Notes under the pieces: model-generated
Told to the model about the DNA's origin: nothing
Seen by the model: the letters and a program-made list of their open reading frames with translations, nothing else
Database searches by the model: none
Part shown: in pieces, positions 15,278 to 36,746 of the stretch
Layout: each line of letters opens with the position of its first letter
How positions within the stretch are numbered: the stretch's first letter is position 1
Assembly (NCBI GenBank): GCA_963762145.1
Contig: CAVXJS010000021.1
Location: forward strand, 256,001-320,000
Direction: 5' to 3'
From: an uncultured Candidatus Rokubacteria bacterium
Lineage (GTDB): Bacteria > Methylomirabilota > Methylomirabilia > Rokubacteriales > CSP1-6
Length of the DNA stretch: 64,000 bases
Translations under genes and position numbers: made by a program

Positions 15278-15353
15278 ACACGATCAGGTTCTCACGACCG
15301 CAATTCACGCCCGGGCTGTATTCCACCGCCGCCCGGGAGGGTCCACGGCGCTG

Positions 15354-15362
15354 TGCTAGAAT
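15354..15362 (+). promoter_or_regulatory. Extended -10 element for the ABC transporter operon
   Basis: TGCTAGAAT ~75 nt upstream of the ATG, which has an AAGGAG Shine-Dalgarno. Confidence 0.4.
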
Positions 15363-15435
15363 CCCGCCAGTCGTCGCCCCCGGTCAGTGCCGACCTCGTA
15401 GGCTCAACCAGACGAAGAGGAAGGAGCTCTCGACC

Positions 15436-16728: not shown

Positions 16729-16752
16729 ACCGGTCCCGGTCGCCCGGTCGCC

Positions 16753-20139: not shown

Positions 20140-20922
20140 GTGGGCCTAGCGACGTTCCTTGAGCGCACGTGGAGCGGCATCGCCGGGCTCGTCAAGCCAC
20201 GCTCGGCCTCCTCTCTCTTTCGGCTGGCCGACCAGTATCGCCACGAAGGGCGTTACGAGGACGCGGCCGAGCTGATCACCGAGGGGCTGCGCGTCTCGCC
20301 TAACATCGCGGTCGGTCACCTGCTGGACGCCTACCTTCACGTGGTGTTCCGCGAGATGCCCGCGGCCAAGGCTTCATTCCGGCGCGTCCTCGGGCTCGAT
20401 CCCTACCACCCGCGTGCCCTGTTTGGGCTCGCGCGCATCGCGCTGGAAGAGGGCGACATCGAGGGATGCCGGCCCTTCCTCGACCGGGCGATCCAGTACT
20501 TCCCGGATTTCCCGGAAGCAAAGGCGCTGCAGGAGATGGTGGCCACCTGGACCGCCCCCGCCCCGGGAGCCTCGACGGCGATCGGGGCGATCTCCACCGA
20601 GCGGCTTCGGCTGCCTCCGGGCGCCCAGGACCTCGTGCTGACGCGCGCGGACGGCAAACTCGTGTTCGCGCAGGGGAGCGAGGAGCGGCAGAAGCACCTC
20701 GGGCTGCACATGACGCAGGTCTACCGGATCGCGTCCGCCACGCTGGCCCGGGCCGGGCTCGGCGCGATGCGACGGGGCGTCATCGAGGGCGCTGAGGAGA
20801 CGACCTTTCTCCGCAGCGACGGCGGCGTGATCCTGGGTGTCGCGCTCGCGCGTGAGGTCGAGGTGGGAGCGGGACTGGTGCAGGTCGGACGCTTGTGGAC
20901 GGATCTCAACATCAAGGCCTGA
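20140..20922 (+). CDS. TPR protein with a C-terminal degenerate Roadblock-like domain
   Basis: Three TPR-like helical repeats, then VLTRADGKLV...GVIEG...VILGVAL...VGAGLVQV following the Roadblock secondary-structure pattern. Confidence 0.65.
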   Translation: MGLATFLERTWSGIAGLVKPRSASSLFRLADQYRHEGRYEDAAELITEGLRVSPNIAVGHLLDAYLHVVFREMPAAKASFRRVLGLDPYHPRALFGLARIALEEGDIEGCRPFLDRAIQYFPDFPEAKALQEMVATWTAPAPGASTAIGAISTERLRLPPGAQDLVLTRADGKLVFAQGSEERQKHLGLHMTQVYRIASATLARAGLGAMRRGVIEGAEETTFLRSDGGVILGVALAREVEVGAGLVQVGRLWTDLNIKA

Positions 20923-21460: not shown

Positions 21461-23527
21461 TTATCCCATCGTCACTCGAATCACTTCCTCCACCGTCGTC
21501 ACGCCATCCACCACCTTCTGCAGCGCGTTCTGTCGCAGCGTCTTCATGCCCTGCGAGCAGGCGGTCTCGCGGATCTCGGCGGTGGTCGCGTTGCGCAGCA
21601 TGAGATCCCGGAGCTCGGAGGTGATCGGCATCACCTCGTAGATGGCCACCCGGCCCTTCATGCCCGTGAAGTTGCACGTCTGGCAGCCCTTGCCCTTGTA
21701 GAAATTGACGTTGCCGAGCCCCTGGGACACGTGCCCGTAGGGGACCAGGCTCTCCTCGTTCGCCTCGTAGGGCTCCTTGCAGTCCTTGCAGATCTTCCGT
21801 CCGAGCCGCTGGGCCAGGATCAGCTGGAGCGAGGACGAGACGAGGAAGGGCGGGATACCCATGTCGAGGAGCCGCGCGGGAGTGGACGGGCAGTCGTTGG
21901 TGTGCAGCGTGGAGAGCACGAGGTGGCCGGTGAGGGCGGCGCGGATACCGATCTGGGCCGTCTCCAGGTCTCGGGTCTCGCCGACCAGGATCACGTCCGG
22001 GTCCTGCCGCAGGAAGCTCCGCAGGCACGCCGCGAAGGTGCGGCCGATCTCGTCGTTGACCTGCACCTGGTTGACGCCCTTCAGGTTGTACTCGACCGGG
22101 TCCTCGGCGGTCATGATGTTGATGTCCGGCGAGTTGATGGTGTGGATCGCCGAGTACAGCGTGGTGGTCTTGCCGGAGCCGGTCGGGCCGGTGATCAGGA
22201 TCATGCCGTAGGGGCTGTGGATCGCCTTGCTGAACTGCTCGAGGCTCCACGGGTCGAAGCCGAGAGCCCCCATGTCGAGCTGGAGCGCTTCCTTGTCCAG
22301 GATACGCATGACGGTCTTCTCGCCGAAGATCGTCGGCAGCGTCGAGACCCGGAAGTCGATCTCCCGCTGGTGGTAGCGCAGCTTGATGCGGCCGTCCTGG
22401 GGGAGCCGGCGCTCCGCGATGTCCATCGTGGCCATGATCTTCACGCGCGAGGTCAGGGCCGCCTCGAGGCGCTTGGGCGGCGTCATGATCTCGTGTAGCA
22501 CACCGTCGATGCGGAACCGGACCCGGAAGACCTTCTCGTACGGCTCGAGGTGGATGTCGGAGGCGCCCCGCCGGATGGCGTCGGTCAGGATCATGTTGAT
22601 GAGCCGGACCACCGGCGCCTCGTCGGCCGACTCCTTGAGGTCGAAGACGTCGGCCTTGCTGAAGGCGGCCTCGCCGTCCTCGACGACCTCGACGTCGGTG
22701 TCGGCCTCCTCCAGCTCGCTCATCATGTCGTTGACGCTGGCGCCCGTCTCGTAGAGACGCTCGAAGGCCTTGCGGATCGCCGCCTCGGAGGCGACCACCG
22801 GCTGGATCTGCAGGCCGGTCATGAACCCGACGTCGTCGAGCGCGAAGACGTTGGTGGGATCCGCCATCGCGAGGGTGAGGACGTTCCCGATCCGCTTGAT
22901 CGGGAGCACGCTGTGCTTCTTGGCGATCTGCTCGGGCACGAGCTTGAGCACGTCCGGATCCGGATCCACCTGCGCCACCGTGATCGCGGGCATGGCGTAC
23001 TGCTTCGACAGGAACGAGACGAGGCTGTCCTCGGTGATGAACTGCAGGCGCACCAGGATCGTCCCGAGCTTGTCGGCGCTGCCCTTCTGCTCGGCGAGCG
23101 CGCGCTGGAGCTGCTCCGGGCTGATGAGCTTCTCGGCCACTAGCCGGTCCCCGAGACGCGACAGGCTGCCCTGGCGACGCTCGATCGAGGAGACCCCGCC
23201 CCGCTTGCCCGCCAACGGGGTCGGCGCGACCTCGATGGACGCGGCGAGCGCCTCCATCTCCTCGGTCGCCGGCACCCGACCGGCCGCGGGCTCCGGGGTC
23301 GGCGCCACGCTCGCGGACGGCCGTCCTCCCACCGTACCGGCAAGGCGCGCCACGACCCGGGCCAGGCTCTCCCGATCACCCAGCTTGGTGTAGATCTCCT
23401 TCAGGGTCTCGAGCGCCCCGGTGTCCGACGGGTTGGCCTCCACGATCATCTCGCAGAGTCGGGCCGACTCGGCCAGGGATCGCTTCTCTTCCGAGGACAG
23501 CGAGATCTTGTTGTCGGTCTGCGCCAT
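21461..23527 (-). CDS. pilB: Type IV pilus extension ATPase PilB (GspE/PulE family) with an N-terminal extension
   Basis: ERRLPQDGR, GPTGSGKT, TAEDPVEY, LRQDPDVILVGE, TGHLVLSTLH, CKDC...CQTC Zn site, MshEN-like RLG repeat. Confidence 0.9.
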   Translation of the reverse strand: MAQTDNKISLSSEEKRSLAESARLCEMIVEANPSDTGALETLKEIYTKLGDRESLARVVARLAGTVGGRPSASVAPTPEPAAGRVPATEEMEALAASIEVAPTPLAGKRGGVSSIERRQGSLSRLGDRLVAEKLISPEQLQRALAEQKGSADKLGTILVRLQFITEDSLVSFLSKQYAMPAITVAQVDPDPDVLKLVPEQIAKKHSVLPIKRIGNVLTLAMADPTNVFALDDVGFMTGLQIQPVVASEAAIRKAFERLYETGASVNDMMSELEEADTDVEVVEDGEAAFSKADVFDLKESADEAPVVRLINMILTDAIRRGASDIHLEPYEKVFRVRFRIDGVLHEIMTPPKRLEAALTSRVKIMATMDIAERRLPQDGRIKLRYHQREIDFRVSTLPTIFGEKTVMRILDKEALQLDMGALGFDPWSLEQFSKAIHSPYGMILITGPTGSGKTTTLYSAIHTINSPDINIMTAEDPVEYNLKGVNQVQVNDEIGRTFAACLRSFLRQDPDVILVGETRDLETAQIGIRAALTGHLVLSTLHTNDCPSTPARLLDMGIPPFLVSSSLQLILAQRLGRKICKDCKEPYEANEESLVPYGHVSQGLGNVNFYKGKGCQTCNFTGMKGRVAIYEVMPITSELRDLMLRNATTAEIRETACSQGMKTLRQNALQKVVDGVTTVEEVIRVTMG

Positions 23528-23546: not shown

Positions 23547-24035
23547 CTAGACCGGACGCTCCCGCAGCGAGGACTGCACCTCGTCCTTGTGGAGCGGCGT
23601 CGACAGCACGCCGGTGCGCTGCGGCCGCGTCCGGGTCTCGGCCAGGATGGCCCCGATCGCGGTGCCCGCCTCCTTGGCGAAGAGACGGACCATGCCCACG
23701 GTGGTCCGGCTGTCGAAGATGGCGAGCAGGATCGCGTGCTCGTCCACCGCGGCGACGTGGATGCTCTCCTTGACGCCCTGATGAAACAGCATCGTGAACT
23801 CGGTCTCGCCGAGCAGCCGCGCCATCGCGGCGGTCGAGCTGAACGCGCCCGCGGCGAGCGCGGAGAGCGACACGGTGTCGAGCGACCGTGAAGCGCCTCC
23901 GCGAGCCAGGAGCTGTCCGCTCCGATCGATCAGGAGCGATTCCATCGCTCCCGATTCGCCCAGGAAGTGCAGGAGAACGCCGTTGATCCGCTGCGCGTCA
24001 TCCTCGTGGATGGCCAGGTTGTCATTTAGACTCAT
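23547..24035 (-). CDS. mglB: MglB (Roadblock/LC7), cognate GAP candidate for MglA
   Basis: LLIDRSGQLL, SLSALAAG, EFTMLFHQG..ESIH, IFDSRTTVGMVRL; adjacent to mglA. Confidence 0.9.
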   Translation of the reverse strand: MSLNDNLAIHEDDAQRINGVLLHFLGESGAMESLLIDRSGQLLARGGASRSLDTVSLSALAAGAFSSTAAMARLLGETEFTMLFHQGVKESIHVAAVDEHAILLAIFDSRTTVGMVRLFAKEAGTAIGAILAETRTRPQRTGVLSTPLHKDEVQSSLRERPV

Positions 24036-24639
24036 TGAGCGCCCCCTGTTCTTGTCCGAACCCGGCGACGAGAACCATGCGAGAGACGGTGTTGAGCGTA
24101 TCGAACACGCCCTTGCCCTCGACGGCGACCGATTCGAAGTACGGAACCCGCCGGCTCTTCCGGTTCAGCATGTATTCGAGGTACTCCACCGGAGCCACGT
24201 TGGGCAGGTCCCGCTTGTTGTACTGGATCACGTACGGGATCTCGTCAAGATTGTACCCGTATTCCTTGAGATTCTCTTCGAGGTTTCTGAAGCTCTCCAC
24301 GTTCTCGGGCAGGCGATCCCACTGCGAGTCCGCGACGAAGACGATGCCGTCGACGCCCCGCAGCACCAGCTTGCGCGTCATGTTGTAGTAAATCTGGCCC
24401 GGCACCGTGTAGAGCTGGAACTTGGCCACGAAGTTCCGCACCGTCACCGCGGAGACCGGCAGGAAGTCGAAGAAGAGCGTCCGATCGTCTCCCGTCGCGA
24501 GCGACACCATGTTGCCGCGGTTGACGTCCGGGAGGCCGCGGTAGATGTACTGGAGGTTGGCGGTCTTCCCGGCCACCCCGGTGCCGTAGTAGACGATCTT
24601 GAAGCTGATCTCTTTTTGCGCGTAGTTGATGATCGACAT
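24022..24639 (-). CDS. mglA: MglA Ras-like small GTPase
   Basis: KIVYYGTGVAGKT (G1), DRTLFFDFLP (G2 with Arg), TVPGQ (G3), NKRD (G4), GVFDTL. Confidence 0.95.
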   Translation of the reverse strand: MSIINYAQKEISFKIVYYGTGVAGKTANLQYIYRGLPDVNRGNMVSLATGDDRTLFFDFLPVSAVTVRNFVAKFQLYTVPGQIYYNMTRKLVLRGVDGIVFVADSQWDRLPENVESFRNLEENLKEYGYNLDEIPYVIQYNKRDLPNVAPVEYLEYMLNRKSRRVPYFESVAVEGKGVFDTLNTVSRMVLVAGFGQEQGALNESK

Positions 24640-24648: not shown

Positions 24649-27624
24649 TCAGGCCGACATCAGCGTCGCCGCTGCGCGCTCGACCTGGCGGTAGGCCAGG
24701 CCGGGCCGGGTGACGGATCCACCCGCGACGATGACGATCGACCGCCCGTGCCCGATCTCTTCGGGCTGGATGACGAGGAGCGTGTCGCCGGATCGCAGGA
24801 TCGCGGTCCGGAACACGGCGCCTGACCCCGCCGCCTTGCGCATCACGGCGTGGAGGTCCTGCGCGAACGCTCCCACCGCAGGCACGTCGTCTCCCGCCGG
24901 CAGGAAGAAGTAGAGGACCGCTTCGCTTTCCGCGTCTCTCAGCACCGACGCGGTGACGTCACCGAACGCGGTCAGCCCTCCCGTGAGGACCGCCGCCCGA
25001 CTCGGCACCGCGGCCGTCGCCAGGCTGGAGCTGGCCGCCGGAACCACGTCCTGACCGGGGCCCGCGGTACGCGCGCCGCGGTCGGCTGCGGCGCGCCGGC
25101 AGAGGATCTCGAGCAGCGCGAGCGTGCCGCCGCGAGGCGCCGCGGCCGCGAGAACCGGTCCCCGGTCGGCCGGACCGCCGAGCGGCGTCAGCACGACGGC
25201 CGTCTCCGGCCCGCGCAGGGTGATCTGATCGACCGGCCAGGACGGACGGCGATCCGTGAACAGCGGCAGGGCGAGGCCCGCCACCGCGACCGCGGTTTCA
25301 TGGGCGACCGTCGGCGCGGCCATCGCAAAGACGGTGACGCCCTCGACCGCCTGGACGCTCACGTCGAAGGACGCGATCGGCGCCAGCAGCGCGACGATAC
25401 GTCGGGCCTCCGCCGCCTCCGCGGCCCCGGGAACGAGCGCGGCGGGAGTCGGGGCGGCCGGCGCCGGCTCGGCCCAGGCGGCGACGGCGGCCCGGGCGGG
25501 AGAAGGCTTGGGCCAGGCGAACGCGGGCGGGGCTGGCGGCACCGAGGGCGGTGCGACCACCGGGGTCGGAACGGTCACGTGCGGCTCCGGCTGCGCGAGC
25601 ACTGGCCGCGTCTCGAGATCGCGGGGGCGGTCCAGCTCGACCCTCGCGACGACCGGAAGCTCCTCCGGCCGCTCCTCGATCGGATCCGGCACCGGATCGA
25701 TGCGGGGCGCATCGGCCATGACGGGCTCAGGTTCCGGGAGCGACGCGATGGCGGGTTCTGGCTCCAGCACGGTCTCCCGCGGCGACTCCTCGGCAGCGAC
25801 CGGCTGCGGCTCGGGCTCGGGGGCGGCCGCCGCTTCAACCGACGCCTCGGGCGCCGGATCCGACACGAGCGGCTGAAAGGGCGCCGGGAAGGACTCGATG
25901 CCGCGGACGTCGACGGCCGGGCCGGCGGCGGCCAAGAACAGGTCCAGCGGGACCTGCCGGACGACCTCGTCGAGCGGGAGGCGCAGGCCGTTCGGCAGAC
26001 GCTCGGTCATCTCCGCGTCCGAGACGGCCATCGCCTCCTGGGGGAATTGCGGCGCGATCACGTCCCAGCCGATGCGAATCAAGCCCTCCGCGAGCTGAGG
26101 CAGCACGAGCGACTGCGGGATCAGCAGCGCCCCGGGCTGCCGCATCCGCTCGGCCACCTCGTCGAGCGGAACGCGGAACGCTTCCACGGGAAGCTCGGCC
26201 GCCACGCGACTCCACGAGATACGCACGATGGGCTCGTCGGTGCCAGGCGCGGCGGCGGCCGAGAGCTCGAGCGCGGCCGGCTCGGGCTTCCTCACCGGCT
26301 CCGGCGTGACCGTCATCGCCGGCTCGATCGGCCGGGGCGCGGCGAGGGGCCGGATCGCCACGGGCTCGGCCGGCTCCGCCGGCTGTGACGCCGACGGCAC
26401 CGCGAGCGGGATCGGAGCGGGGGCGCGCGGCGCCTCCGGCGGCGGCGTCGGCCTGACCGCCGGGGCCGGTGCGATCTCGGGCTCCGGCTGCCTCACTGCC
26501 GCAGCCTCGGTCGGTGCCTGGGACTCGTCCATCGGGTGGAACGGCACCGGGATCCGGTGGAGCCCGTGGATCTCGACCTCGGGGGTATCCGCGACGAACA
26601 GCTCCTGTGGCAGCTGGCGGATCACCTCGTCGATGGGGAGCCTCAAGCCTTCGTCCAGGTGCTCGGCGATCTCGGCCTTGCTCAATCCCACCAGGTGGGC
26701 CGGGAACTGATCGGCGATATCGCTCCACGCGACCCGTGCCATCCCCTCCGATAGCTGGGTGACCACGAGCTCGCCGGAGATCCGGAGGAACCCGGGCTCG
26801 GCGAGGCTTGCCGCCACCTCGTCCTCCGGCGCGAGAAAAGTGCCGGGAGGGAGCTGGTCCATGACGCGGTCGAGCGCGATGCGCAGCACGACTTCCGATC
26901 GGCCGGGCACGCGGGCCGGCTCGGCGTCGCGCCGGCGCTTTGCCGCCGCGGCGCGGCGCCGACGGGGCTCCTCGTCCGGTGCCGGAACGGGCGCAGGCGG
27001 TGGGGGCGGCGCCACCGGGGGGACAGGAGCTGACATCACGCCGGGCTCGGGAGCCGGCTCGGCTCGCGAGAGCAGCGCGTCGCTCAGGGAGCCGCTCCCC
27101 TCGAGCGCAGGCGCGCTCGGCACGCGAGTGGGTGTGGCAGACCGGGCCCGACTCACCGACGAGCGCGCGGTCGAGGCACCCCGCTCGCGGGGAAGACGGG
27201 CGGGCGCGTGCAGCAGGTCACGGAGCGGCACCAGGAGCAGCATCACGCCGAGGAGCTCCGGCAAGGGCGGCGGCAGCATCCAGGGCAGGGCGCGGCCCGC
27301 GAGCGCCGGATCGAGCAACGCGCTGAGCGGCTCTCGGGACATGCTCAGCAAGACGTGGAGTCCGCTCAGGAGCGCGGTGCCCACGAGCCATCGCACGATG
27401 GATGGACGGCGAACCCAGAGCCAGACCAGCAAGCCGTACACCACCGGCGGAATGCTCGCGACCGCCCACTTCGGCAACGGCACCTCGAACTGGAGAGGGA
27501 CGAGGGTCAGGAGGTAGATGACGCCGACATACGCGGCGAGGCCCAGCACCGCCATGAGCCAGGACGAGAGCCGCTGGGCGCTGGACACGAAATGATGGGA
27601 CGTTCTCATGGAGGAAGGCCTCAC
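24649..27624 (-). CDS. Unknown 991-aa membrane-anchored protein: N-terminal TM helices, two ~120-aa repeat domains, Pro/Ala linkers, C-terminal tandem Roadblock-like domains
   Basis: Hydrophobic N-terminus, visible internal duplication, position within the gene string with an overlapping start. Confidence 0.75.
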   Translation of the reverse strand: MRPSSMRTSHHFVSSAQRLSSWLMAVLGLAAYVGVIYLLTLVPLQFEVPLPKWAVASIPPVVYGLLVWLWVRRPSIVRWLVGTALLSGLHVLLSMSREPLSALLDPALAGRALPWMLPPPLPELLGVMLLLVPLRDLLHAPARLPRERGASTARSSVSRARSATPTRVPSAPALEGSGSLSDALLSRAEPAPEPGVMSAPVPPVAPPPPPAPVPAPDEEPRRRRAAAAKRRRDAEPARVPGRSEVVLRIALDRVMDQLPPGTFLAPEDEVAASLAEPGFLRISGELVVTQLSEGMARVAWSDIADQFPAHLVGLSKAEIAEHLDEGLRLPIDEVIRQLPQELFVADTPEVEIHGLHRIPVPFHPMDESQAPTEAAAVRQPEPEIAPAPAVRPTPPPEAPRAPAPIPLAVPSASQPAEPAEPVAIRPLAAPRPIEPAMTVTPEPVRKPEPAALELSAAAAPGTDEPIVRISWSRVAAELPVEAFRVPLDEVAERMRQPGALLIPQSLVLPQLAEGLIRIGWDVIAPQFPQEAMAVSDAEMTERLPNGLRLPLDEVVRQVPLDLFLAAAGPAVDVRGIESFPAPFQPLVSDPAPEASVEAAAAPEPEPQPVAAEESPRETVLEPEPAIASLPEPEPVMADAPRIDPVPDPIEERPEELPVVARVELDRPRDLETRPVLAQPEPHVTVPTPVVAPPSVPPAPPAFAWPKPSPARAAVAAWAEPAPAAPTPAALVPGAAEAAEARRIVALLAPIASFDVSVQAVEGVTVFAMAAPTVAHETAVAVAGLALPLFTDRRPSWPVDQITLRGPETAVVLTPLGGPADRGPVLAAAAPRGGTLALLEILCRRAAADRGARTAGPGQDVVPAASSSLATAAVPSRAAVLTGGLTAFGDVTASVLRDAESEAVLYFFLPAGDDVPAVGAFAQDLHAVMRKAAGSGAVFRTAILRSGDTLLVIQPEEIGHGRSIVIVAGGSVTRPGLAYRQVERAAATLMSA

Positions 27625-28505
27625 ACGGCCCGGACCAGGTCCGGGAGCGCTTTCTTCACGTGGTATCGCACCTTGCCGAGCACCGCCGAATCGCCAAGCA
27701 CCACCGCGAGCATCGCGCCCGCGCCCACGGCATTCAGCAGCACGACACCCGCGTCGTATTCGAGGATCAAGCTCTGGAGGCGCCCCTGGGTCAGGGCCCG
27801 TCCCACTCCGTCGGTCACTTCGACCAGACAGGCGGCGAGGGCGCCCGCGAGCTCGGCTTCGGGAAGGAGCCCACCCGCGACCTCCATCAGGGCTCCCTCG
27901 CGGTCGATCAGCGCGGTCAGGGAGACCCCGGCCAGCTCGGCCACCCCGGCGAGCAGCGCCTTGAGGTCGGGAGTCGGTGCCGCCGCGGCGACCGCAACCG
28001 GCTCCGCGACCGGCGCCGGCGGCTCGGGCTGAGGCACGCGGCGTTCGGGGGCCGTGACCGGCGCGGCGACCGGAGCGGCGGAAGCCGCCGGGACCACCGC
28101 GCGGGCCGGCGGGGACGCGACCGCGGGCGCGGGCCGCCCCGCGGCCGGCAACAGGCTCTCGATGCGATGCAGGAGCTCGTCGGCCGCGAAGGGCTTTCGC
28201 ATCACGTCGTCCGACCGCACCTTGGCCGCACGCTCCATCACGGTGCTGTTGACGATGCCCGAGATCAGCAGCACCGGCGTGTGTCCGAGAGTCGGGTGCT
28301 TCTTGACGAAGTCACAGATCTGGTAGCCGTCCATGTCCGGCATGATCACGTCACAGACGATGAGATCGGGCGTCTCGCGCGCGATCTGCTCCATCGCCTC
28401 GGTGCCCGAGGCGGCCGACAGCACCTCGATGCGCTTCGACTCCAGGGCCCGCTGCACGACCTTCCGGACGCTGAGACTGTCGTCTACGACCAGTACCTTG
28501 GGCAT
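27621..28505 (-). CDS. Response regulator receiver fused to a Roadblock/LC7 domain
   Basis: VLVVDD...LIVCD..MP.MDG...ISG...KPF; Pro/Ala linker; AGVSLTALIDREGAL...LILEY...LGKVRY. Confidence 0.88.
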   Translation of the reverse strand: MPKVLVVDDSLSVRKVVQRALESKRIEVLSAASGTEAMEQIARETPDLIVCDVIMPDMDGYQICDFVKKHPTLGHTPVLLISGIVNSTVMERAAKVRSDDVMRKPFAADELLHRIESLLPAAGRPAPAVASPPARAVVPAASAAPVAAPVTAPERRVPQPEPPAPVAEPVAVAAAAPTPDLKALLAGVAELAGVSLTALIDREGALMEVAGGLLPEAELAGALAACLVEVTDGVGRALTQGRLQSLILEYDAGVVLLNAVGAGAMLAVVLGDSAVLGKVRYHVKKALPDLVRAV

Positions 28506-28508: not shown

Positions 28509-29402
28509 CTATCCGTCCCGCCTCGGTCCACGAGCGGCCGCGGCCTCGCGGCGCCCGTCGGCGCTCTGGGTTCCCTCGTCGATCGCTTGCGCCACGCTCA
28601 AGAGGAGCTGCTCCACGCTGCGCGAGATGGTGCGCGGTCGTCCCGCCAGGCTCTCGCGCTCGGCGCGGTTGAAGCAGAAGCGCGCCTCGCCTTCCCGCTG
28701 GGAGGCGCCTACCATCGCGGCGAAGGCGGGCTCGCCCGTCTTCCCGGAGAAGTCGGCGTGGATGACCCGACCGGCCTCGAAGAGGATGCTCCCCTCGCCG
28801 CCCGACAGCGAGAGCAGCAGCTCGCCGGTCTTGACTCCGAGCGAGATGACCTGGGTGAGCTCGGTCAGGTCCATCACGCCGAGCGAGCCCTGGAAGCTGC
28901 TGCGCCCCGGCTCGGCCGCGGCCCTTGCGGCCGGCGCCGCGACGGCGGGAGCGGCCGGGGGCCGCGGCGGCATCTTCGCGGGCCCCTTGGCCGCCACCGG
29001 CGGCTCCGGGCGGCGCACGGGGGCGACGGGGGGCTCCTCTCCGAGCAGCTCCTTGATGCGCGCCATCACGGTGGCCAGGGTGAAGTCGCCGGTGACCGTC
29101 ATGTCCACGCCGGCCTCGGTGGCGGCCAGCGCGATGGGCCGATCGCGACCGGCCAGGAGCAGGAACGGCGTGTCCTTCGTCGCCGGATCGCGCCGCACCA
29201 TCGTGAACAGCTCATAGCCGTCCATGTCCTGCACCTTGGCGTAGCTCACGATCAGGTCGGGCTGCTCCCATTCGAGCATGGTCAGCGCGAACGAGCCGCT
29301 CGTCGCGACCGCCGCTTCGTATCCGGCTTCCGCGAGAGCGTGGGCCAGCGCGACCCGGCTGTCCTGGTTGGCATCCACCACGAGCACCTTGGCGTCGGCC
29401 AT
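28509..29402 (-). CDS. Pseudo-receiver plus DUF4388 (PATAN-like) domain protein
   Basis: REC fold without the phosphoacceptor (LIVSY); C-terminal FQGSLGVMDLTELTQVISLGVKTGEL...GRVIHA...LLL. Confidence 0.82.
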   Translation of the reverse strand: MADAKVLVVDANQDSRVALAHALAEAGYEAAVATSGSFALTMLEWEQPDLIVSYAKVQDMDGYELFTMVRRDPATKDTPFLLLAGRDRPIALAATEAGVDMTVTGDFTLATVMARIKELLGEEPPVAPVRRPEPPVAAKGPAKMPPRPPAAPAVAAPAARAAAEPGRSSFQGSLGVMDLTELTQVISLGVKTGELLLSLSGGEGSILFEAGRVIHADFSGKTGEPAFAAMVGASQREGEARFCFNRAERESLAGRPRTISRSVEQLLLSVAQAIDEGTQSADGRREAAAARGPRRDG

Positions 29403-29405: not shown

Positions 29406-32336
29406 CTACTCCACCAGGCTCCCGCCGTGGGCGGAGCCGGCGACTTCGAGTGCCCGCTCCCCCGAGACGATCGATTCGACGATCCGCACGAAACTCTGCT
29501 CGTCCACCGGCTTCGTGACGTAGTGGCGCACGCCCAGGCGCCGGGCCAGGTCGACGTGCTTCGCGCCGGCGCGCGTCGTCATCACGATCACCGGAACCTC
29601 GCGGGTCGCCGGCCGCCGCCGCAGGTCCTCGATCAGGCCGTACCCGTTGAGCCGCGGCATCTCGAGATCGGTGACGACCACGTCCACGTTCCGCTCCACG
29701 AGCTGCGCGAGCGCGTCCTGGCCGTCGATCGCGGTGACGACCTGGAAGCCGGCCTTCTCCAGCATCTGACCGACGAACTTCCGGATGCTCACCGAATCGT
29801 CCACCAGCATGACGGTGGGCCGACGCTCCGCGGGGTCGAGCGGAGCCGGCTCGCGCACCGGGGCGGCTGGATGCCGCGTCGCCGCCTCGCGCAGAAGGGT
29901 CGGGTCGAGGAGCAGGATCACGCGGCCTTCGCCCGAGATCGTGGCGCCCGAGAACGGACCCACCCCCTCGACCAGCGCGCCCAGGCTCTTGATGACGATC
30001 TCTTCCTTGCCCAGGAGCTCGTCCACCACCACGCCGAAGGGCTTGCCACCACCCCGCATCACCACCACCGGCAGACGCGAGGGCGGCGGAGACGGGACCA
30101 GACCCAGCGCCCGATCGAGGCGGACGAGCTCGATCGTCCGGTCGTCGAGCGACACGGTCTCCCGCCCGCCCGCGACCTGGATCTCGCGCGGCGCGACCGA
30201 CCGCATCGCGCTCACCCCGGTGAGCGGGAACGCCACCGTCTCCGGCCCGCACCGCACCATCAGCGCGTCCGCGATCGCCATCGTGACGGGCAGCTTCAGG
30301 ACGAAGCGCGTCATGCGCCCGGCCTCCGTCTCGACGTGGATCTCTCCGTTGAGCCGGCTGACGTTGGTGCGCACGACGTCGAGGCCGACTCCGCGACCGG
30401 CGGTCTGGGTCACCGAGGACGCGGTGCTGAAGCCCGCCACGAAGATGAGGTTCAGGATCTCGCCCTCGGGCAGCGTGGCCGCCTCGGCCGGGGGCAGGAA
30501 CCCGCGCTCCACCGCGTGCCGCCGCAGCACCTCGGTATCGATCCCGCGCCCGTCGTCCTCCACCACCACCAGGATGAAGCTGCCCTCCTGGGACGCGGAC
30601 AGAGTCACGTGGCCGGCCGCCGCCTTGCCGCGGCTCTCGCGCTCCGGGGCCGGCTCGATGCCGTGCGCCACCGCGTTCTGGATCAGGTGCAGCAACGGGT
30701 CGGCGATCTGCTCGATGATCCCGTTGTCCACCTCCACCGACTCCCCGCGCACCGTGAGGCTCACCGACTTGCCGGTGGCCCGGGCCGTCTCCCGCACCTG
30801 CTGGGCCACCCGCGCGAAGAGCCGGCCGATGGGCACCATGCGCGCGCGCGTGATCTCCTTGCGGAGGGCCGCGGTCAGCCGCTGGATCTGCACCGTGTCT
30901 TCCCGGATGTTGCGCAGGAGGGTCGCGTGCTGGCTCTGCACCTCGGCCACGTCCGCGGACATCTCGGTCACGCTGCGGGCCAGGATATTGATGTCGTCGT
31001 AGCGGTCGAACTCGAGCTCGGCGAAGAGATCGGAGATGTCGCGCAGCTTCCCTGCCGCGTCGCGCTCGGCGCCGCGGCCGTCGCGGGGCATCGTGGGCGC
31101 CTGCTGGCGGAACTCGAAGTCGCGGCCGACCTGGCCGAGGCGCGTGCGGCTGGCGAGGAGCAGATCGCTCACCTGGTCGAGCTGGGCCAGCCGCCGGTCG
31201 AGGCGGCTCCGCGCGATCATCAGCTCCCCCACCAGGTTCATGAGCGTGTCCAGCCGCTCCACCGGCACCCGGATGCTGGGCCCGGAGGTCGCCGCGCTCG
31301 AGGCGCGGAGGGCCGGCCGCGGCAGAGCCTCGAGCCGGGCCAGGAACTCGGGGCGCACGAACGGCGGCAGCTCCAGCGAGGGCGTCCGCGCGAGATCCGG
31401 CGCCTCGGGGGCGACGACCGGATCGGGAGCCTCGACCGCGGGCGGAATGGCCGGGCGCTCGGGCAGGCTCTCCGAGGCCGCCAGGAGGCGCAGGTCGCGC
31501 GTCGCGCGCTCGAGCGCCTCCGCCGCCTCCTCGGACACCGCGGCCCCGGACTGGAGCACCCGCTTGATGGCCGCGGCTCCCGAGAAGATCGCCTCGGTCA
31601 CCGCCGGTGTGGCGGGAAGCCGCTGCTCGCGCAGTACGCCGAGAAGATCCTCGATGTAGTGCGTGGCGTCGCCGAGCGGGGCGCATCCGACCGTGTACGC
31701 CGCGCCCTTGAGCGTGTGAGCGGCCCGGAAAACGGTCGCCAGCGTGTCCTCGTCGCGCGCGCCGCCCTCGATGGCGAGCAGGGCGGTGGTCATCGACTCC
31801 AGGTGCTCGGCGGCCTCGGGCACGAAGTACTCGAGAACCTCGCCGCCCTCGGCGAAGAACCGCCGCAGGTCGGCGAGCAGCGGTGAGATCGGAGCCGGCG
31901 GCAGGGCGATCGCGGGCTCCGGGTCGGGCGCGGCGGCCGGCGAGGCGAAGAACGCGGGATGACGGGACTTGAAGTCCGCGATACGGGCCGAGTCCTCGTT
32001 CCCGACTGCGCTGATGCCGTCGAAGACCTCCTTCAGGAGGTCGACGAGGCCTTCCAGGAAGACGGCCGATCCGACCCGCTCGTCGGCCGACGCGGTCGGG
32101 GCCCGCTCGAGCAGGCGCTCGGTGCCCGCGGCGAGCTCCGAGACGCCGGGGAACCCGTGAAGGGCGGCCGAGCCCTTCAGACGGTGCGCGAAGACGACGA
32201 GTGTCGCGAGAGCCTCCGCGGTCGGATTCTCCGGAGCGGTGAGCAGGCCGAGCTCGTCCTCGATGGCCCCGGCGGTATCCCAGGCCTCCATCAGGAAGAT
32301 GCCCAGCAGCAGCTCGCGCTCGCGACGATCGGCCAT
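29406..32336 (-). CDS. cheA: Hybrid chemosensory histidine kinase (CheA/ChpA-like): 2 HPt, HATPase, CheW, REC
   Basis: AHRLKG and AHTLKG HPt motifs; IRVPVERLD.LMNLVGEL; NAVAHG, DDGRG, GFST, GRGVGLDVV; C-terminal DD...TDLEMP...KP. Confidence 0.95.
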   Translation of the reverse strand: MADRRERELLLGIFLMEAWDTAGAIEDELGLLTAPENPTAEALATLVVFAHRLKGSAALHGFPGVSELAAGTERLLERAPTASADERVGSAVFLEGLVDLLKEVFDGISAVGNEDSARIADFKSRHPAFFASPAAAPDPEPAIALPPAPISPLLADLRRFFAEGGEVLEYFVPEAAEHLESMTTALLAIEGGARDEDTLATVFRAAHTLKGAAYTVGCAPLGDATHYIEDLLGVLREQRLPATPAVTEAIFSGAAAIKRVLQSGAAVSEEAAEALERATRDLRLLAASESLPERPAIPPAVEAPDPVVAPEAPDLARTPSLELPPFVRPEFLARLEALPRPALRASSAATSGPSIRVPVERLDTLMNLVGELMIARSRLDRRLAQLDQVSDLLLASRTRLGQVGRDFEFRQQAPTMPRDGRGAERDAAGKLRDISDLFAELEFDRYDDINILARSVTEMSADVAEVQSQHATLLRNIREDTVQIQRLTAALRKEITRARMVPIGRLFARVAQQVRETARATGKSVSLTVRGESVEVDNGIIEQIADPLLHLIQNAVAHGIEPAPERESRGKAAAGHVTLSASQEGSFILVVVEDDGRGIDTEVLRRHAVERGFLPPAEAATLPEGEILNLIFVAGFSTASSVTQTAGRGVGLDVVRTNVSRLNGEIHVETEAGRMTRFVLKLPVTMAIADALMVRCGPETVAFPLTGVSAMRSVAPREIQVAGGRETVSLDDRTIELVRLDRALGLVPSPPPSRLPVVVMRGGGKPFGVVVDELLGKEEIVIKSLGALVEGVGPFSGATISGEGRVILLLDPTLLREAATRHPAAPVREPAPLDPAERRPTVMLVDDSVSIRKFVGQMLEKAGFQVVTAIDGQDALAQLVERNVDVVVTDLEMPRLNGYGLIEDLRRRPATREVPVIVMTTRAGAKHVDLARRLGVRHYVTKPVDEQSFVRIVESIVSGERALEVAGSAHGGSLVE

Positions 32337-32340: not shown

Positions 32341-34207
32341 TCAGCTCGCCAGCTTGAAGCGGGATAGCTTGGCGGTCAGCTCTTCCGCCAGGTGGGCCAG
32401 CTGCTCGACGTTCTTCCGGCTCTGCTGCACGCCCTGCTCGGCCTTCACCGCCGCGCCCGCAATCGCCTGCACCGCCCCCGCGGCGGCCTCGGCGCCCCGG
32501 ACCTGCGTCTGCGAGGCGTGGGAGATCTCGGCCGCGAGCTCGGCGGACGTCTGCGAGATCTTCCCGATCTCCTGGAGGGCCTCCTCCGCCTTGAGACTCA
32601 CCTCGTACCCGGACTCGACCTCCCGGGTGCCGGCCTCCATCGCCACCACCGCCTCCTGGGTCTCCACCTGCACGCCCTTGATGAGCGTGCCGATGTCCCG
32701 GGTGGCCTGGGTGGCCCGCTCGGCCAGCTTGCGCACCTCGTCGGCCACGACCGAGAACCGCAGCCCCGCCTCGCCCGCACCCGCCGCTTCGATCGAAGCG
32801 TTCAGGGCGAGCAGGTGCGTCTGGGCCGCGATGTCCTGGATGGTGTTCACGATATTCGAGATCTCGAGCGAGCGGTCGCCGAGGGACTTGATCTTCTTGG
32901 AGATCGTCTGCACCTCGGCCCGGATCTGCTGCATGCTCGCCAGGCTGTTGCGTACCGCTCCCTCGCCCTTGCTCGCGGCCTGGAGCACCTGGCGTGCCGC
33001 CTTCGCGCTCTGGTCGGCACTGTCCGCGACCTGGCGCACCGAGACCGTCACGTCCGCCACCGAGCGGGTCACGCTCACCGCGTCGCGGGTCTGGGCCTGC
33101 GCCGCCTCCGCGAGCTCGCCGGTGATGCGGATGGTGTCCTGCGAGCCCGAGGCCACGCGGAGGGCGGCCTGCCGCACGTCGCCGACGACCGAGGAGATCT
33201 CCTCGACCATCAGGTTGATCGCGTCCACCACGTTGCCGAGCACGTCCCAGCTCACCTCGCCGCGCCGGGTGAGGTCGCCCTTGCCGATCTCCACCACCGT
33301 GTCGAGGAACGTGATGATGTTCTGCTGCAGGTCCTCGCGCTTGCGGCGCTCCTCGTCGCGGTCGGTCTCGGTCTGGACCAGCGAGCGGAGCCGCACGATG
33401 GACTCGTTGAAGGTGACCGCCATCTGACCGATCTCGTCGCGCGACGTGACCGGCACCAGCTGGGAGAGGTCGCCCCGGCCCACGCGCTCGGCCACGCTCA
33501 CGAGGGCATTGACCGGACGCGTGATGCGCTGGGCGAAGATCACGCCCGCGAGCACCGCGACCGCCGCGATCCCCCCCAGCACCAGGAGCAGGAAGTTGCC
33601 GGCCCCGACCGCCGCGGTGCGGATGATCGACTTGTCCATGCCCACCCGCACGGTCCCGAGGCGGCCGCCCAGCATGGGCACGCCAATGTCGATGATCTCG
33701 CGCTCGCTCCCGCCGCGGGGATCGGAGATAGGTGAGCTCCTGGACCTGCGGCCGGGAGGCCTGCCCCGGCACCACGTTCTTCTCGATGATGCCCTTGGGC
33801 ACCACCGGGGCGAAGGTGTGGGCCACGAGTGCGCGCTGGGGATCGTAGACCATGACGTAGGCCACGCCGGAGATCTTGGCGAACTCGTCCACCTGGGCCT
33901 GCACGGTGGATGCGTCACGATTGACCACGAGGTCCGCCGCGGAGCTCGACAGGCTGTTGGCGATGGCGCTGCCCTTGTCGGTGAACTCGCGGGTGAGATT
34001 CTCCTGCAGCGACCGATAGGCGATGGTCCAGCTCGCGATCGCCACCGGCAGCAGGACCAGCACGAGGAAGATGGTGATCTTGCCCAGCAGGCCGAACCGC
34101 GCCCGGGAGACCGGAACGGGTGCGGCCTCGACGGGGGATCCCTCCGCGCCCTTCCTCGACCCGTGCCTTCTCCAGCCTCGCTTCAAGCCGTCCATGCCCA
34201 TGTTCAT
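32341..34207 (-). CDS. Methyl-accepting chemotaxis protein (PilJ-like), with one frameshift near 33727
   Basis: TM-periplasmic domain in one frame; TM-HAMP (SRDEIGQMA..FN) and QTHLLALNASIEAA...FSVVADEVRKLAE in another; removing 1 nt joins ELTY to SDPRGG. Confidence 0.9.
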
Positions 34208-35454
34208 GCCTTGACCGCGGCGGCCCAGTCGGCGACCGGCACCCAGCGATCGCCCTCGACCCGCGTGAAGTAGACGCTGTCCAGCCCCTGGTGCCGCTCG
34301 GCGCTGAAGGTGAGCGGCGCGCCGATTCCGAGGTCGAGGCCGCGGAGCGATTCCAGCGCCTGCCGGAAGGACGGCCGCCCCGCGTTGGACCCCGCCCGAC
34401 GCAACGCCTCGACGATCACCCGCGCGTTCACGTATCCCTCGAGGCTGATGAAGCTGTACTTCTGCGGCGCGTAGGCGGCGTCGCGAAGTGCCTCGGGCAC
34501 CTGCGGGTTTTGCTTGTCCATGAGGGCCCGGTACTCGAGGACGCCCGGCAGCACGGTATCGTCGTAGCTCGGCACCACCTGGGAGTTGATCAGCGCGCGC
34601 GTGTAGTCACGGCCCTTCGCGCGACCGTGCTTGGCCAGCAGGCCGAGCATGGCGTCCGATCCCACGAACGAGACGTTGGAGATCGGCGCGGTCCAGCCCG
34701 CGTCGCGCGCGGAACGCACGAAGGCAGCGCAGCCCTGGTAGGCCCCGGTGCAGAGCACGACCTCGCTGCCCGCCTCGCGGAGGGCCTGGACCGCGATCGT
34801 CATGTCCTCCTCGAACTTGGCGTTGCGGACGTAGGTGGCCTCCGCCACGATCTTGGCGTTGCGCGCGGCGAGGGCCCGAGCGACCCCGTCGGTCCCGCTG
34901 CGCCCGTAGGCGTCGATCTGGTAGTACACGCCGAAGCGCCGCGCCCCCGCCTGCCAGAAGCGCTCCACCAGCGCCGACATCTCCTGGCGATAGGAGGCTC
35001 GGACGTTGAAGACCTGATCGACGTAGGGAGTCTCGCGCTGGGGCTGAGCGCCGGTGAAGTTGCCTACCAGGACCACGCCCTGATCCGCGTACTGCTTGAT
35101 CACGGGCAGCGCGCGCGTGAGGGTCGGCGTGCCCACGTAGTTCGAGAGCAGGAACACCTTCTCTCGGTCCAGCAGCTGGATAGTGTTGCGGATGCACGGG
35201 TCCGGGTTGTAGCCGTCGTCGAGCGCGACCACCGTGATCTGCCGCCCGAAGAGGCCGCCGCGCGCGTTGATCTCACTGTAGTAGGCCTGCGCGCCCCGGT
35301 AGAGCTCGCTGCCGAGGCCCGCCGCGGCGCCCCGGAACGCCGCGCTCATGCCGATCCGGATCTCGCCCGCCTGGGCCCGCGCTGCGGTCCGCGGCAGCAC
35401 GACACTCGCGAGGCCGGTCGAGAGGACGCTGCCGATGAAGCCTCTCCGGTTCAC
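34204..35454 (-). CDS. Tat-exported periplasmic binding protein (type I, Liv-like), with no permease genes
   Basis: NRRGFI twin-arginine signal, IRIGMSA, LDDGYNP, VGTPT, FNVRASY, SLEGY. Confidence 0.85.
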   Translation of the reverse strand: MNRRGFIGSVLSTGLASVVLPRTAARAQAGEIRIGMSAAFRGAAAGLGSELYRGAQAYYSEINARGGLFGRQITVVALDDGYNPDPCIRNTIQLLDREKVFLLSNYVGTPTLTRALPVIKQYADQGVVLVGNFTGAQPQRETPYVDQVFNVRASYRQEMSALVERFWQAGARRFGVYYQIDAYGRSGTDGVARALAARNAKIVAEATYVRNAKFEEDMTIAVQALREAGSEVVLCTGAYQGCAAFVRSARDAGWTAPISNVSFVGSDAMLGLLAKHGRAKGRDYTRALINSQVVPSYDDTVLPGVLEYRALMDKQNPQVPEALRDAAYAPQKYSFISLEGYVNARVIVEALRRAGSNAGRPSFRQALESLRGLDLGIGAPLTFSAERHQGLDSVYFTRVEGDRWVPVADWAAAVKA

Positions 35455-35966
35455 GCGGATACCTCCTGCGCGATCGTCGAAGTCGAGGGTCGAAGGGCGG
35501 CCAGGATCTTCGGAACGTCGAGCAGCGGCACGGTCTCCCCGGCCCAGTGGATCCAGCCCGCCATCACCGGACGGGGTCCCGACATCCGCGCGGCGGTCGG
35601 GCTGTCGACCGGCGCCACGTCCTCGTAGGGCTCGAGCCCGAGCACGGTGTCCACGACCAGCGCGGCCTGCACGGCGCCGTCGCGCACCACCAGCGTGCGG
35701 AGGGTACGACCGGGGCGGGCGTCCGCCAGTCCCAGCAGGTCCCGGACATCGACGATCGGCATCACGGTGCCCCGGAGGTTCGCCACGCCGACCAGATGCC
35801 GGGGGGCGCGGGGGACCGCGGTGAACTCGTCGAAGAGCACGACTTCTCGGGCGCTCCGGACGTCCACCGCGAAACGGGCCCCGGCCAGCGCGAACAGGCA
35901 GGCGCGCGGCGCCGGAGGGGCGTCCGGAGCAGCCGGCAGGACGGGGATCACGGGAGTCGGCGTCAT
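35451..35966 (-). CDS. cheW: CheW adaptor (PilI-like)
   Basis: VPRAPRHLVGVANLRGTVMPIVD, ALVVDTV, LLDV. Confidence 0.92.
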   Translation of the reverse strand: MTPTPVIPVLPAAPDAPPAPRACLFALAGARFAVDVRSAREVVLFDEFTAVPRAPRHLVGVANLRGTVMPIVDVRDLLGLADARPGRTLRTLVVRDGAVQAALVVDTVLGLEPYEDVAPVDSPTAARMSGPRPVMAGWIHWAGETVPLLDVPKILAALRPSTSTIAQEVSA

Positions 35967-35970: not shown

Positions 35971-36333
35971 CTATTTCACGAACTGGCGCACCATGCCGAG
36001 AAGCTGGTCCGCGGTGAAAGGCTTGGCCAGGTAGTCCGCGGCGCCCTGTCGCTGCCCCCACAGGCGATCGCTCTCCTGATTCTTGGAGCTCACGAACACC
36101 ACCGGGGTGTCCTTGGTGCGGGGGTCGCGCCGGAGCCCGCGCAGCACCTCGTAGCCGTTGCGCTTGGGCATCACGATGTCCAGGAGCAGCAGGTCCGGCC
36201 GCTCCTCCACGACCCGATCCTCCAGGAGCTCGCCGTGATCGTACGACACCACCTGATGCCCGGCCGCCTTGAGGATGCCCTCGATCAGTTTCAGCTCTGA
36301 CACGGCGTCATCGACAACCATCACTTTGCCCAC
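35971..36333 (-). CDS. Single-domain response regulator (CheY/PilH-like)
   Basis: GTG start after GAGGAGG; VVDD...LLDIVMP..NGY...SSK..ESDRLWG.RQGA..YLAKPF. Confidence 0.92.
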   Translation of the reverse strand: MGKVMVVDDAVSELKLIEGILKAAGHQVVSYDHGELLEDRVVEERPDLLLLDIVMPKRNGYEVLRGLRRDPRTKDTPVVFVSSKNQESDRLWGQRQGAADYLAKPFTADQLLGMVRQFVK

Positions 36334-36393
36334 GAAGCGACCCTCCTCGACTGCGAGTGCACCTGGCCATAGCTTTTCGGGGGGTTCATCTAC

Positions 36394-36409
36394 TGCAAAC
36401 CCCCTACCA
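36394..36409 (-). promoter_or_regulatory. Putative sigma-54 promoter of the chemosensory-Mgl-PilB gene string
   Basis: Minus strand TGGTAGGGGGTTTGCA = GG-N10-GC with TTGCA, ~60 nt upstream of the first gene. Confidence 0.55.
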
Positions 36410-36746
36410 ACCGATGTTTTCCGCCGTCTTGGGCGCCGTTCAGCACTCGTCCGGGTCAATGCCGTGGATTCAAGGCTTTCCGGCCCTCCGGGGTCGTTTT
36501 GGGGACCGCCGTGGCAGGGTGACACCGGGCGGACGTCCGGTAGGTGACGCCTACTGTCAGAAGGACTGCCCCGAACCGTCGGCTGGACTGCCCAGTCCGC
36601 CGGGCACGGGCCGTCCTCCGGGCCCGGGGCCGGGGGTCAACTTGCGATGATGGGGGGGCTATGCTAGCGTGGCGGTGCGTTTTTTATGGAACTCTCACCC
36701 GCTGTCCCGCACCAGTCCTGCCCGACCATAAGGAGACCTTGGATCA

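Follow-up and report, generated by a model that had tools for sequence, protein, structure and literature searches.

In an uncultured Candidatus Rokubacteria bacterium, a 64,000-nt stretch of contig CAVXJS010000021.1 (positions 256,001 to 320,000; hereafter the window, with coordinates counted from its first letter) encodes a 294-residue protein in which an intact CheY-like receiver is joined to a Roadblock/LC7 domain. Its gene lies in a chemosensory operon that also encodes the kinase CheA, a partner with a degenerate receiver and a PATAN domain, the small GTPase MglA, MglB, and the type IV pilus extension ATPase PilB. Context gives good support to a route in which CheA feeds the receiver-Roadblock protein and this in turn acts on the MglA/MglB/PilB polarity module; it is also the most economical reading, since the phosphorylation site is intact, CheA is encoded at 24 of 24 homologous loci, and the genes share one operon. 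With regard to mechanism, the protein is tentatively considered, at somewhat less than an even chance, to be a multi-domain response regulator that can be phosphorylated and forms the output of a type-IV-pilus chemosensory pathway, acting as a Roadblock adaptor by analogy with RomR, MglC, and FrzX of Myxococcus xanthus.

Conservation of the receiver-Roadblock protein and its locus

The gene and its parts are located as follows.

27621..28505, minus strand: receiver-Roadblock response regulator, 294 amino acids (open reading frame, translation, Pfam Response_reg and Robl_LC7, AlphaFold2 model)
28149..28505, minus strand: receiver domain, residues 1-119 (Pfam; D8, D9, D52, S82, K104)
27972..28148, minus strand: Ala/Pro-rich flexible tether, residues 120-178 (composition, model confidence as predicted local distance difference test, pLDDT)
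27624..27971, minus strand: Roadblock/LC7 domain, residues 179-294, stopping at helix alpha3 (Pfam, sequence matches in the Protein Data Bank (PDB), hhalign, DSSP)

The open reading frame (ORF) and its translation run from an ATG at 28505 to a TGA at 27623-27621. An earlier sequence-only reading of this DNA left the strand unstated; the plus-strand reading of the interval is rich in Arg, Gly, and His, and the codon usage of the minus-strand ORF is that of a real gene, with a G+C fraction of 0.88 at third codon positions (GC3) and 0.47 at second positions (GC2). Pfam Response_reg matches residues 4-116 (E 3.3e-25; 88.9 bits against a cut-off of 30.2), and the receiver contains the motifs VVDDS (D8, D9), DLIVCDVIMPDMDG (D52), LLISG (S82), and KPF (K104-P105-F106). 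The acidic DD pocket, phospho-acceptor Asp, switch Ser, and KPF named in the sequence-only reading are all found, as is the Pro/Ala linker it described, with 21 Ala and 16 Pro (63%) in the 59 residues from 120 to 178. Its claim of a full Roadblock domain also holds, given a Robl_LC7 match at residues 184-269 (E 1.8e-7; 31.2 bits against a cut-off of 23) and a complete predicted fold. Among PDB sequences, the C-terminal half best matches CvnB5 (3leq, E 1.2e-6), followed by Thermus MglB (3t1r, E 1.1e-4) and M. xanthus MglB (E 0.012).

An AlphaFold2 model, built from the 33-sequence family alignment described below, has a mean pLDDT of 86.9. It predicts a (beta-alpha)5 receiver at residues 1-119, a disordered tether with pLDDT below 50 at 130-148, and a Roadblock domain at 181-293 whose topology by DSSP is alpha-beta-beta-alpha-beta-beta-beta-alpha (helices H and strands E: H181-189, E194-201, E206-211, H214-237, E245-249, E254-260, E264-270, H273-293). 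A Foldseek search with the full model returned receiver matches only (top TM(target) 0.93-0.95), and no information was gained on the Roadblock half. The predicted template modelling score (pTM) is 0.46, although both domains are modelled with confidence, and tether length in the family spans 11 to 105 residues, with a median of 47; both observations speak against a fixed packing of the receiver and the Roadblock domain.

Related proteins are readily found in sequence databases. With the protein as query, a word-index search scored 8000 candidates, 1795 of them at E<=1e-3; in the best 120 of these, identity to the query is 81-100% and both Pfam domains are always present. Relatives are named 'CheY-like chemotaxis protein/predicted regulator of Ras-like GTPase activity (Roadblock/LC7/MglB ...' by JGI and 'response regulator' by NCBI, the latter in metagenome-assembled genomes (MAGs) of Methylomirabilota or Candidatus Acidoferrum. 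When 50%-identity representatives were searched exhaustively, 364 proteins reached E<=1e-30, and the family alignment was assembled from 28 full-length matches among the best 150 of these and 5 close relatives. The window protein itself aside, members are 32-92% identical to it. D8, D52, K104, and P105 are invariant (33/33), while D9 is kept in 29/33 and S82 in 30/33. Since the phospho-site residues are kept across 33 members down to 32% identity, the pairing of an intact receiver with a Roadblock domain goes beyond chance. The Roadblock domain has conserved positions of its own, with G204, L238, E249, L276, and R280 kept at 90% or more in the alignment. In all four Deinococcota or Gemmatimonadota homologues scanned, Robl_LC7 does not reach E 1e-3 in the C-terminal domain; tblastn aligns these through residue 290.

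Several database relatives depart from this architecture. P0161, P0144, and P0147 are longer proteins with two receivers ahead of the Roadblock domain, which in P0161 is matched by Robl_LC7 at residues 299-384. P0273 was left out of the alignment, its second half aligning as a receiver and not as a Roadblock domain. A stand-alone form of the Roadblock domain was also considered and rejected: the 29 matches shorter than 161 amino acids are read as truncated copies of the fused gene, 26 being 71-97% identical and two (P0415, P0416) 55-56%, with most lying on short contigs.

A species-representative genome collection was scanned with 13 of the closer family members, returning 80 loci, of which 24 (L001-L022, L024, L026) have a full-length homologue; gene context was counted by tblastn of ten operon proteins on L001-L026. 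By label, the 24 loci come from 15 Rokubacteria/Methylomirabilota MAGs, two Limnocylindria/Nitrosotalea, one Gemmatimonadaceae, two Meiothermus, two Deinococcota, and two Trueperaceae. CheA is encoded upstream in 24/24 and the pseudo-receiver-PATAN protein directly upstream in 24/24. Among the same 24 loci, X991 (the membrane protein described below) is found in 17, MglA in 15, MglB in 16, and PilB in 10. In the tblastn alignments, D8, D9, and D52 are retained at every locus (26/26), and K104 is seen in 25/26; in the one left over, a split alignment leaves K104 uncovered.

The loci labelled Candidatus Limnocylindria (L001) and archaeon Nitrosotalea (L003) hold a near-identical operon, with an MglA 100% and 97% identical to that of the window, and these contigs probably represent Rokubacteria DNA that was mis-binned. 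In Gemmatimonadaceae, Meiothermus, Deinococcota, and Trueperaceae (L016, L017, L019-L022, L024), the che operon ends with the PATAN and receiver-Roadblock pair. These operons have two genes for methyl-accepting chemotaxis proteins (MCPs), except that L016 has one MCP and CheW and that the L022 contig starts within cheA, with any MCP outside the sequence. Two Nitrospirales loci, L023 and L025, were rejected as family members, matching over residues 1-151 and 1-172 only, and are considered a different system; the neighbourhood of L025 differs as well, in that two CheW genes lie upstream of the match and a gene for an Hpt protein lies downstream. The remaining 54 loci match in the receiver only, and both of those checked are C-terminal receivers of multi-Hpt ChpA-like kinases.

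The chemosensory operon and its neighbours

The operon lies entirely on the minus strand and reads, in order, CheY, CheW, periplasmic binding protein, MCP, hybrid CheA, pseudo-receiver-PATAN protein, receiver-Roadblock protein, X991, MglA, MglB, and PilB. Apart from the receiver-Roadblock gene, its members are as follows.

35971..36327, minus strand: single-domain CheY-like receiver with intact DD, D, S, and K; bounds approximate, the true start inside ORF 35971..36525 not being fixed (translation, alignment)
35451..35966, minus strand: CheW (Pfam E 1.7e-25)
34204..35454, minus strand: periplasmic binding protein Peripla_BP_6, LivJ-like (Pfam E 3e-49)
32341..34207, minus strand: MCP with HAMP and MCPsignal domains and a 1-nt insertion near 33725 (Pfam, DNA alignment)
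29406..32336, minus strand: hybrid CheA with two Hpt stretches, dimerisation, HATPase, and CheW-like domains, and a C-terminal receiver (Pfam, NCBIfam CheA models)
28509..29402, minus strand: pseudo-receiver and PATAN (DUF4388) protein, 297 amino acids (Pfam, alignment)
24649..27624, minus strand: X991, unannotated membrane protein of 991 amino acids (hydrophobic segments; no Pfam or NCBIfam match)
24022..24639, minus strand: MglA-type small GTPase (Pfam Arf/Ras, sequence, invariant columns in 11 orthologues)
23547..24035, minus strand: MglB, Roadblock, 162 amino acids, with a C-terminal tail of about 30 amino acids (Pfam Robl_LC7 E 1e-13)
21461..23527, minus strand: PilB type IV pilus extension ATPase (Pfam T2SSE and MshEN; TIGR02538 750.5 bits, cut-off 675.65)

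Almost all of these genes abut or overlap. The receiver-Roadblock stop codon and the GTG start of X991 overlap (GTGA), and no terminator-like site was found between operon genes, one being found inside X991. An apparent gap of 286 nt ahead of the annotated MCP start is explained by a frameshift in the MCP gene: relative to the close relatives L001 and L002, there is one extra base near 33725, which places the transmembrane/sensor part and the HAMP-MCPsignal part in different frames. Either an error in the assembly or a genuine frameshift may account for the extra base. The gene set has the composition of a type-IV-pilus (Tfp-type) chemosensory system, namely an MCP, CheW, a multi-Hpt hybrid CheA with a C-terminal receiver, and adjoining pilus genes. 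No CheB or CheR domain was found among the 52 ORFs or fragments scanned with Pfam, which represent part of the window's ORFs. In the alignment, three receivers of the operon are intact: those of CheY, of the CheA C-terminus, and of the receiver-Roadblock protein.

The fourth receiver, that of the PATAN protein, is degenerate. In the alignment with the other three, its acidic pair reads D-A, Tyr stands at the phospho-acceptor position, and the Ser/Thr switch and the Lys are replaced by Ala and Gly, respectively. Across 24/24 loci in three phyla the acceptor position is never Asp (R in 11, Y in 4, T in 3, A in 2, and G, K, V, and E in 1 each). Judged from these residues, the PATAN partner is predicted to be a protein that cannot be phosphorylated at its acceptor site, which would leave the receiver-Roadblock protein and the small CheY as the only free-standing acceptors. 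The PATAN partner has its receiver ahead of the PATAN domain, opposite to the arrangement in cyanobacterial PatA-type regulators. The sequence-only reading missed this dead receiver, the separate intact CheY upstream, and the conserved 991-residue membrane protein between the receiver-Roadblock gene and mglA.

That membrane protein, X991, is without a Pfam or NCBIfam match, and its best 120 relatives are all 'hypothetical' and likewise contain no Pfam domain. It has three hydrophobic segments in the first 134 residues, Pro-rich spacers, and an internal repeat of two copies of a domain of about 125 amino acids, of unknown type, that are 46% identical (E 2e-37). Its last 124 amino acids match the Roadblock domain of the fusion family in hhalign over 104 columns (score 32.6, probability 71%, E 3.6e-5), and the controls scored at most 14.2 in 30 column shuffles, 12.4 with the reversed sequence, and 10.7 with the receiver profile. 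No match of this C-terminus to the MglB family profile was found, and a search of the PDB with its hidden Markov model gave chance-level pilin matches only (E 0.6). The preceding 140 residues weakly resemble the last domain (E 0.0046), and their match to the Roadblock profile is not significant (E 0.11). X991 is therefore described here as a membrane protein that probably ends in one, possibly two, Roadblock-like domains. It sits between the receiver-Roadblock gene and mglA in 17/24 loci.

The downstream genes encode a recognizable polarity module. The window GTPase contains R53, L55, F56, F57, F59, and Q82, all in invariant columns among the 11 orthologues, and the identically numbered residues of Thermus MglA are catalytic and MglB-contacting (Miertzschke et al., PMC3199381). 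The best PDB match of the operon MglB is M. xanthus MglB (6h5b, E 2e-24). PilB has an MshE-type motif for cyclic di-GMP (c-di-GMP) ahead of the MshEN domain (NF053729 70.1 bits, cut-off 38), which suggests a c-di-GMP input to the same pilus motor.

Other genes of the window were noted in passing. A Liv-type ABC transporter (binding protein, permease, and two ATPases) is encoded at 15259-20039 on the plus strand, and the LivJ-like binding protein gene within the che operon is kept in 15 Rokubacteria loci at 74-94% identity; together these hint at amino-acid sensing through the binding protein. A gene for a tetratricopeptide-repeat (TPR) protein (20140-20922, plus strand) converges on the end of pilB. 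The TPR protein SgmX of M. xanthus is reportedly an MglA effector for pili. At about 43873-63960 on the minus strand, a cluster for ribosomal proteins, SecY, RpoA, EF-Tu, and EF-G forms a housekeeping context.

Possible routes from CheA to the pilus motor

The sequence-only reading proposed that CheA phosphorylates the receiver-Roadblock protein, which then tunes MglA directly as a GTPase-activating protein (GAP) or exchange factor (GEF). The link from CheA to polarity stands by context (an intact phospho-site, CheA two genes upstream, and MglA, MglB, and PilB in the operon), whereas direct action on MglA is not supported. The Roadblock domain is a genuine homologue of MglB (hhalign against the operon MglB family: probability 96.5%, E 8.6e-10), consistent with the MglB matches in the PDB. 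Against the NCBIfam MglB model (NF052242), however, the protein scores 19.6 bits with a cut-off of 200. The fused protein also stops at alpha3 (residue 294) and lacks the C-terminal tail, whereas the window MglB runs about 30 residues further; in the available part of PMC6785124, the C-terminal tail or helix of M. xanthus MglB is what gives exchange activity.

A further difference is seen on helix alpha2. E229 and G233 of the fused domain align with S66 and A70 of the window MglB, the phmmer alignment to Thermus MglB and the hhalign alignment to operon MglBs agreeing. These MglB residues correspond to Thermus A68/A72 and M. xanthus A64/G68, where the step from PDB-chain to native numbering is inferred and the offset chosen is the only one that gives Ala/Ala and Ala/Gly at those positions. 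In Thermus MglB, double Arg substitution at A68/A72 lowers the affinity for MglA about 10-fold (PMC3199381). The exposed alpha2 stripe in 10 MglBs consists of V/I55, A59, A62, S66, A69, and A70. In the 33 fusion proteins, the stripe is E/D218 (29), A222 (26), A/S225 (26), E229 (19), D/E232 (20), and G233 (17), so that acidic E/D218, E229, and D/E232 stand where MglB has V/I55, S66, and A69. The aligned residues thus suggest a tendency, though not in every member, for the small, uncharged hydrophobic patch of MglB to be replaced by an acidic face. Helix alpha3, in turn, is more basic than in MglB, with K278 in 23/33, R280 in 31/33, K/R284 in 26/33, and K/R285 in 30/33; the mean net charge over the 33 fusion sequences is -2.4 for alpha2 and +3.0 for alpha3, compared with +2.1 for alpha3 of MglB. 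Equivalog-level similarity, a small uncharged alpha2 patch, and a C-terminal tail, by which membership in MglB was judged, are all absent.

Direct binding of MglA by the Roadblock dimer, which would then be gated by phosphorylation and serve as GAP, anti-GAP, or exchange factor, with the kinase-to-GTPase link in one polypeptide, is therefore unlikely. In its favour, beyond homology to MglB, the gene lies two genes from mglA in 15/24 loci, small residues are kept at some stripe positions (A222 26/33, A/S225 26/33, G233 17/33), and MglB itself docks without contributing a catalytic residue (PMC3199381), such that a divergent Roadblock domain could still dock. Yet the low MglB score, the missing tail, and the acidic residues at three stripe positions, with E229 at one of the two sites changed to Arg in the weakened Thermus MglB, all speak against it. 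Moreover, a bona fide MglB is already encoded beside MglA, the gene persists in Deinococcota loci without nearby mglA or mglB, and MglC provides a precedent for Roadblock paralogues losing MglA binding.

The preferred proposal is that the protein acts as an adaptor. First, the hybrid CheA would phosphorylate D52. The Roadblock domain would dimerise and dock on other Roadblock modules, namely MglB and/or the Roadblock-like end of X991, and would not bind MglA in the manner of MglB. The phosphorylated, tethered receiver could then alter this assembly by strengthening or breaking the Roadblock-Roadblock contact, or by recruiting the pseudo-receiver-PATAN partner, which may bind PilB. The outcome would be a shift in where MglB keeps MglA off, and hence in the pole at which MglA-GTP and PilB build pili. 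One chain would in this way combine the roles of FrzX or RomR (receiver) and of MglC (Roadblock adaptor), which are separate in M. xanthus.

Several points weigh against this proposal. X991, MglA, MglB, and PilB were not found nearby in 7/7 non-Rokubacteria loci, though the contig ends within 1.3 kb in four of them. The other three (L020, L021, L024), all Deinococcota, have 10 kb of downstream sequence, within which neither mglA nor mglB was found in 3/3, and the L020 genes there are unrelated (DUF418, LutB-like, and others). Because these seven loci are without MglA, MglB, X991, and PilB nearby, the conserved core is CheA, PATAN, and receiver-Roadblock, and the tie to MglA is a lineage-specific adjacency. 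The NF052242 model is also strict, since the operon's own MglB, at 80.6 bits, likewise falls below the cut-off of 200. Residue 229 is Glu in only 19/33 members, and the non-MglB surface is a tendency rather than a rule. In the available part of PMC10329633, MglC has a negative two-helix side and a positive four-helix side, a polarity that the alpha2 and alpha3 charges fit, but the likeness is one of charge pattern. Finally, the MCP frameshift may mean that the pathway is impaired in this organism, unless it is an assembly error.

The absence of nearby mglA and mglB outside Rokubacteria gives some room to a second alternative, that the receiver-Roadblock and pseudo-receiver-PATAN proteins act on the pilus motor without MglA. 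The Roadblock domain would then serve for dimerisation or as a scaffold, and the phosphorylated receiver would pair with the dead one to switch PilB on or off. The two proteins form an invariant pair in 24/24 loci over three phyla, including those without nearby mglA or mglB, and in Synechocystis no more than the PATAN domain is needed for binding to PilB1 and PilC and for output (bioRxiv 2021.06.11.447907). In cyanobacteria, the PATAN regulators encoded in chemosensory operons depend on a phospho-Asp of their own (bioRxiv 2021.06.11.447907); here it is missing, so the phospho-signal must come from another protein. Nevertheless, in the Rokubacteria lineage the receiver-Roadblock gene is translationally coupled to X991, followed by mglA and mglB, and Roadblock domains typically partner small GTPases (Koonin and Aravind 2000, as cited in the available part of PMC4316618). 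This alternative is likewise judged not likely.

An elaboration of the adaptor proposal that is quite unlikely as a whole is a membrane-anchored Roadblock stack, formed by the X991 end, the receiver-Roadblock dimer, and MglB, which would hold or release MglA in a Ragulator-like manner, with CheA flipping the switch by phosphorylating the scaffold. If true, it would explain in physical terms how chemosensory signals pass into a polarity module built of Roadblock proteins and a GTPase. Lastly, it is very improbable that the protein is a phosphate sink or pathway modulator, localised by its Roadblock domain, that mainly takes up phosphoryl groups from CheA and leaves the actual output to the small CheY: the operon does have three intact receivers (CheY, CheA C-terminus, receiver-Roadblock), and Type-IV-pilus chemosensory systems use two antagonistic regulators in the available parts of PMC10519157 and PMC11181946, but a Roadblock domain with invariant residues of its own over three phyla is more than a sink needs.

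Comparison with known systems

Response_reg and Robl_LC7 fusions are listed in Pfam and were noted in 2014, and MglA/MglB genes are sometimes found near PATAN genes, according to the available part of PMC4316618. The domain fusion is already known, and both halves are already named by automatic annotation. In full-text literature searches, no functional study of a receiver-Roadblock protein was found, only the 2014 remark on such fusions, and neither was a paper linking Rokubacteria to MglA or DUF4388 to Roadblock. In the literature searched, no description appears to exist of the conserved system around the fusion, of the dead PATAN receiver, or of X991. In M. xanthus, how Frz response regulators act on the MglA/MglB/MglC/RomR module is still called unknown in the available part of a 2023 study (PMC10329633, Nat Commun 2023). 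A phosphorylatable receiver fused to a Roadblock domain, encoded between the kinase and MglA-MglB-PilB and beside a dead PATAN receiver, names the Roadblock layer as the likely point of signal entry, and the architecture offers a compact set of proteins for testing how a kinase signal enters. It also extends MglA-based control of pilus polarity to Methylomirabilota (Rokubacteria), and since a cultivable Meiothermus carries a homologue (M. hypogaeus DSM 23238, L017; L019 is a MAG), the hypothesis is testable.

The closest likeness is to the RomR/MglC/MglB system. RomR consists of a receiver, a Pro-rich linker, and an acidic tail (PMC4719450). MglC, a Roadblock paralogue of M. xanthus, binds MglB and RomR and not MglA, and sits between RomR and MglB in a complex that is broken by MglA-GTP, according to the available parts of PMC4719450 and PMC10329633. 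In both systems, a receiver with a Pro-rich linker is coupled to a Roadblock adaptor, which in the case of MglC docks on the MglB dimer and sets MglA exclusion. Here, however, receiver, linker, and Roadblock domain form one polypeptide inside a che operon, and the likeness is one of architecture and of the adaptor's charge polarity. RomR, moreover, was not phosphorylated in vitro by FrzE (bioRxiv 10.1101/137695), whereas the receiver of the window protein keeps every phospho-site residue. In this respect it is closer to FrzX, a receiver that is phosphorylated by the CheA FrzE and whose phosphorylated form reaches the pole in a way that depends on MglB (bioRxiv 10.1101/137695), recruited through MglB or an MglB-binding protein, to gate the polarity switch. 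FrzX is single-domain and is recruited only when phosphorylated; the Roadblock domain here would instead be a built-in anchor.

MglB itself (Thermus 3T1Q family; M. xanthus 6H5B) shares the Roadblock fold, detectable homology, and a position near mglA, but differs in that the fused domain falls short of the equivalog model, has an acidic alpha2 stripe, lacks the C-terminal tail, and is joined to a receiver. The conservons of Streptomyces, as described in the available part of PMC4316618, consist of the histidine kinase CvnA, the Roadblock protein CvnB, CvnC, and the MglA-like CvnD, and also couple a kinase genetically to a Roadblock protein and an MglA-like GTPase, CvnB5 being the best PDB match of the fused domain. 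Unlike the window operon, conservons in that account have no receiver domain, chemosensory proteins, or pilus genes. A looser likeness, by analogy, is to Ragulator-Rag, in which Roadblock modules stacked on a membrane anchor control a small GTPase (the available part of PMC10329633); the window operon encodes three, possibly four, Roadblock-type domains, one on a membrane protein, X991 being counted by profile match.

With respect to the chemosensory pathway, the operon resembles the cyanobacterial Tax1/Pix and Pseudomonas Pil-Chp systems (PixG/PixH, PilG/PilH). Those systems likewise combine an MCP and CheW with two regulators and a hybrid CheA ending in a receiver, and their PATAN-type regulator contacts PilB. 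Set against both, the PATAN protein here has its domains in the opposite order and a dead receiver, a Roadblock domain is part of the second regulator, and the operon itself encodes MglA and MglB.

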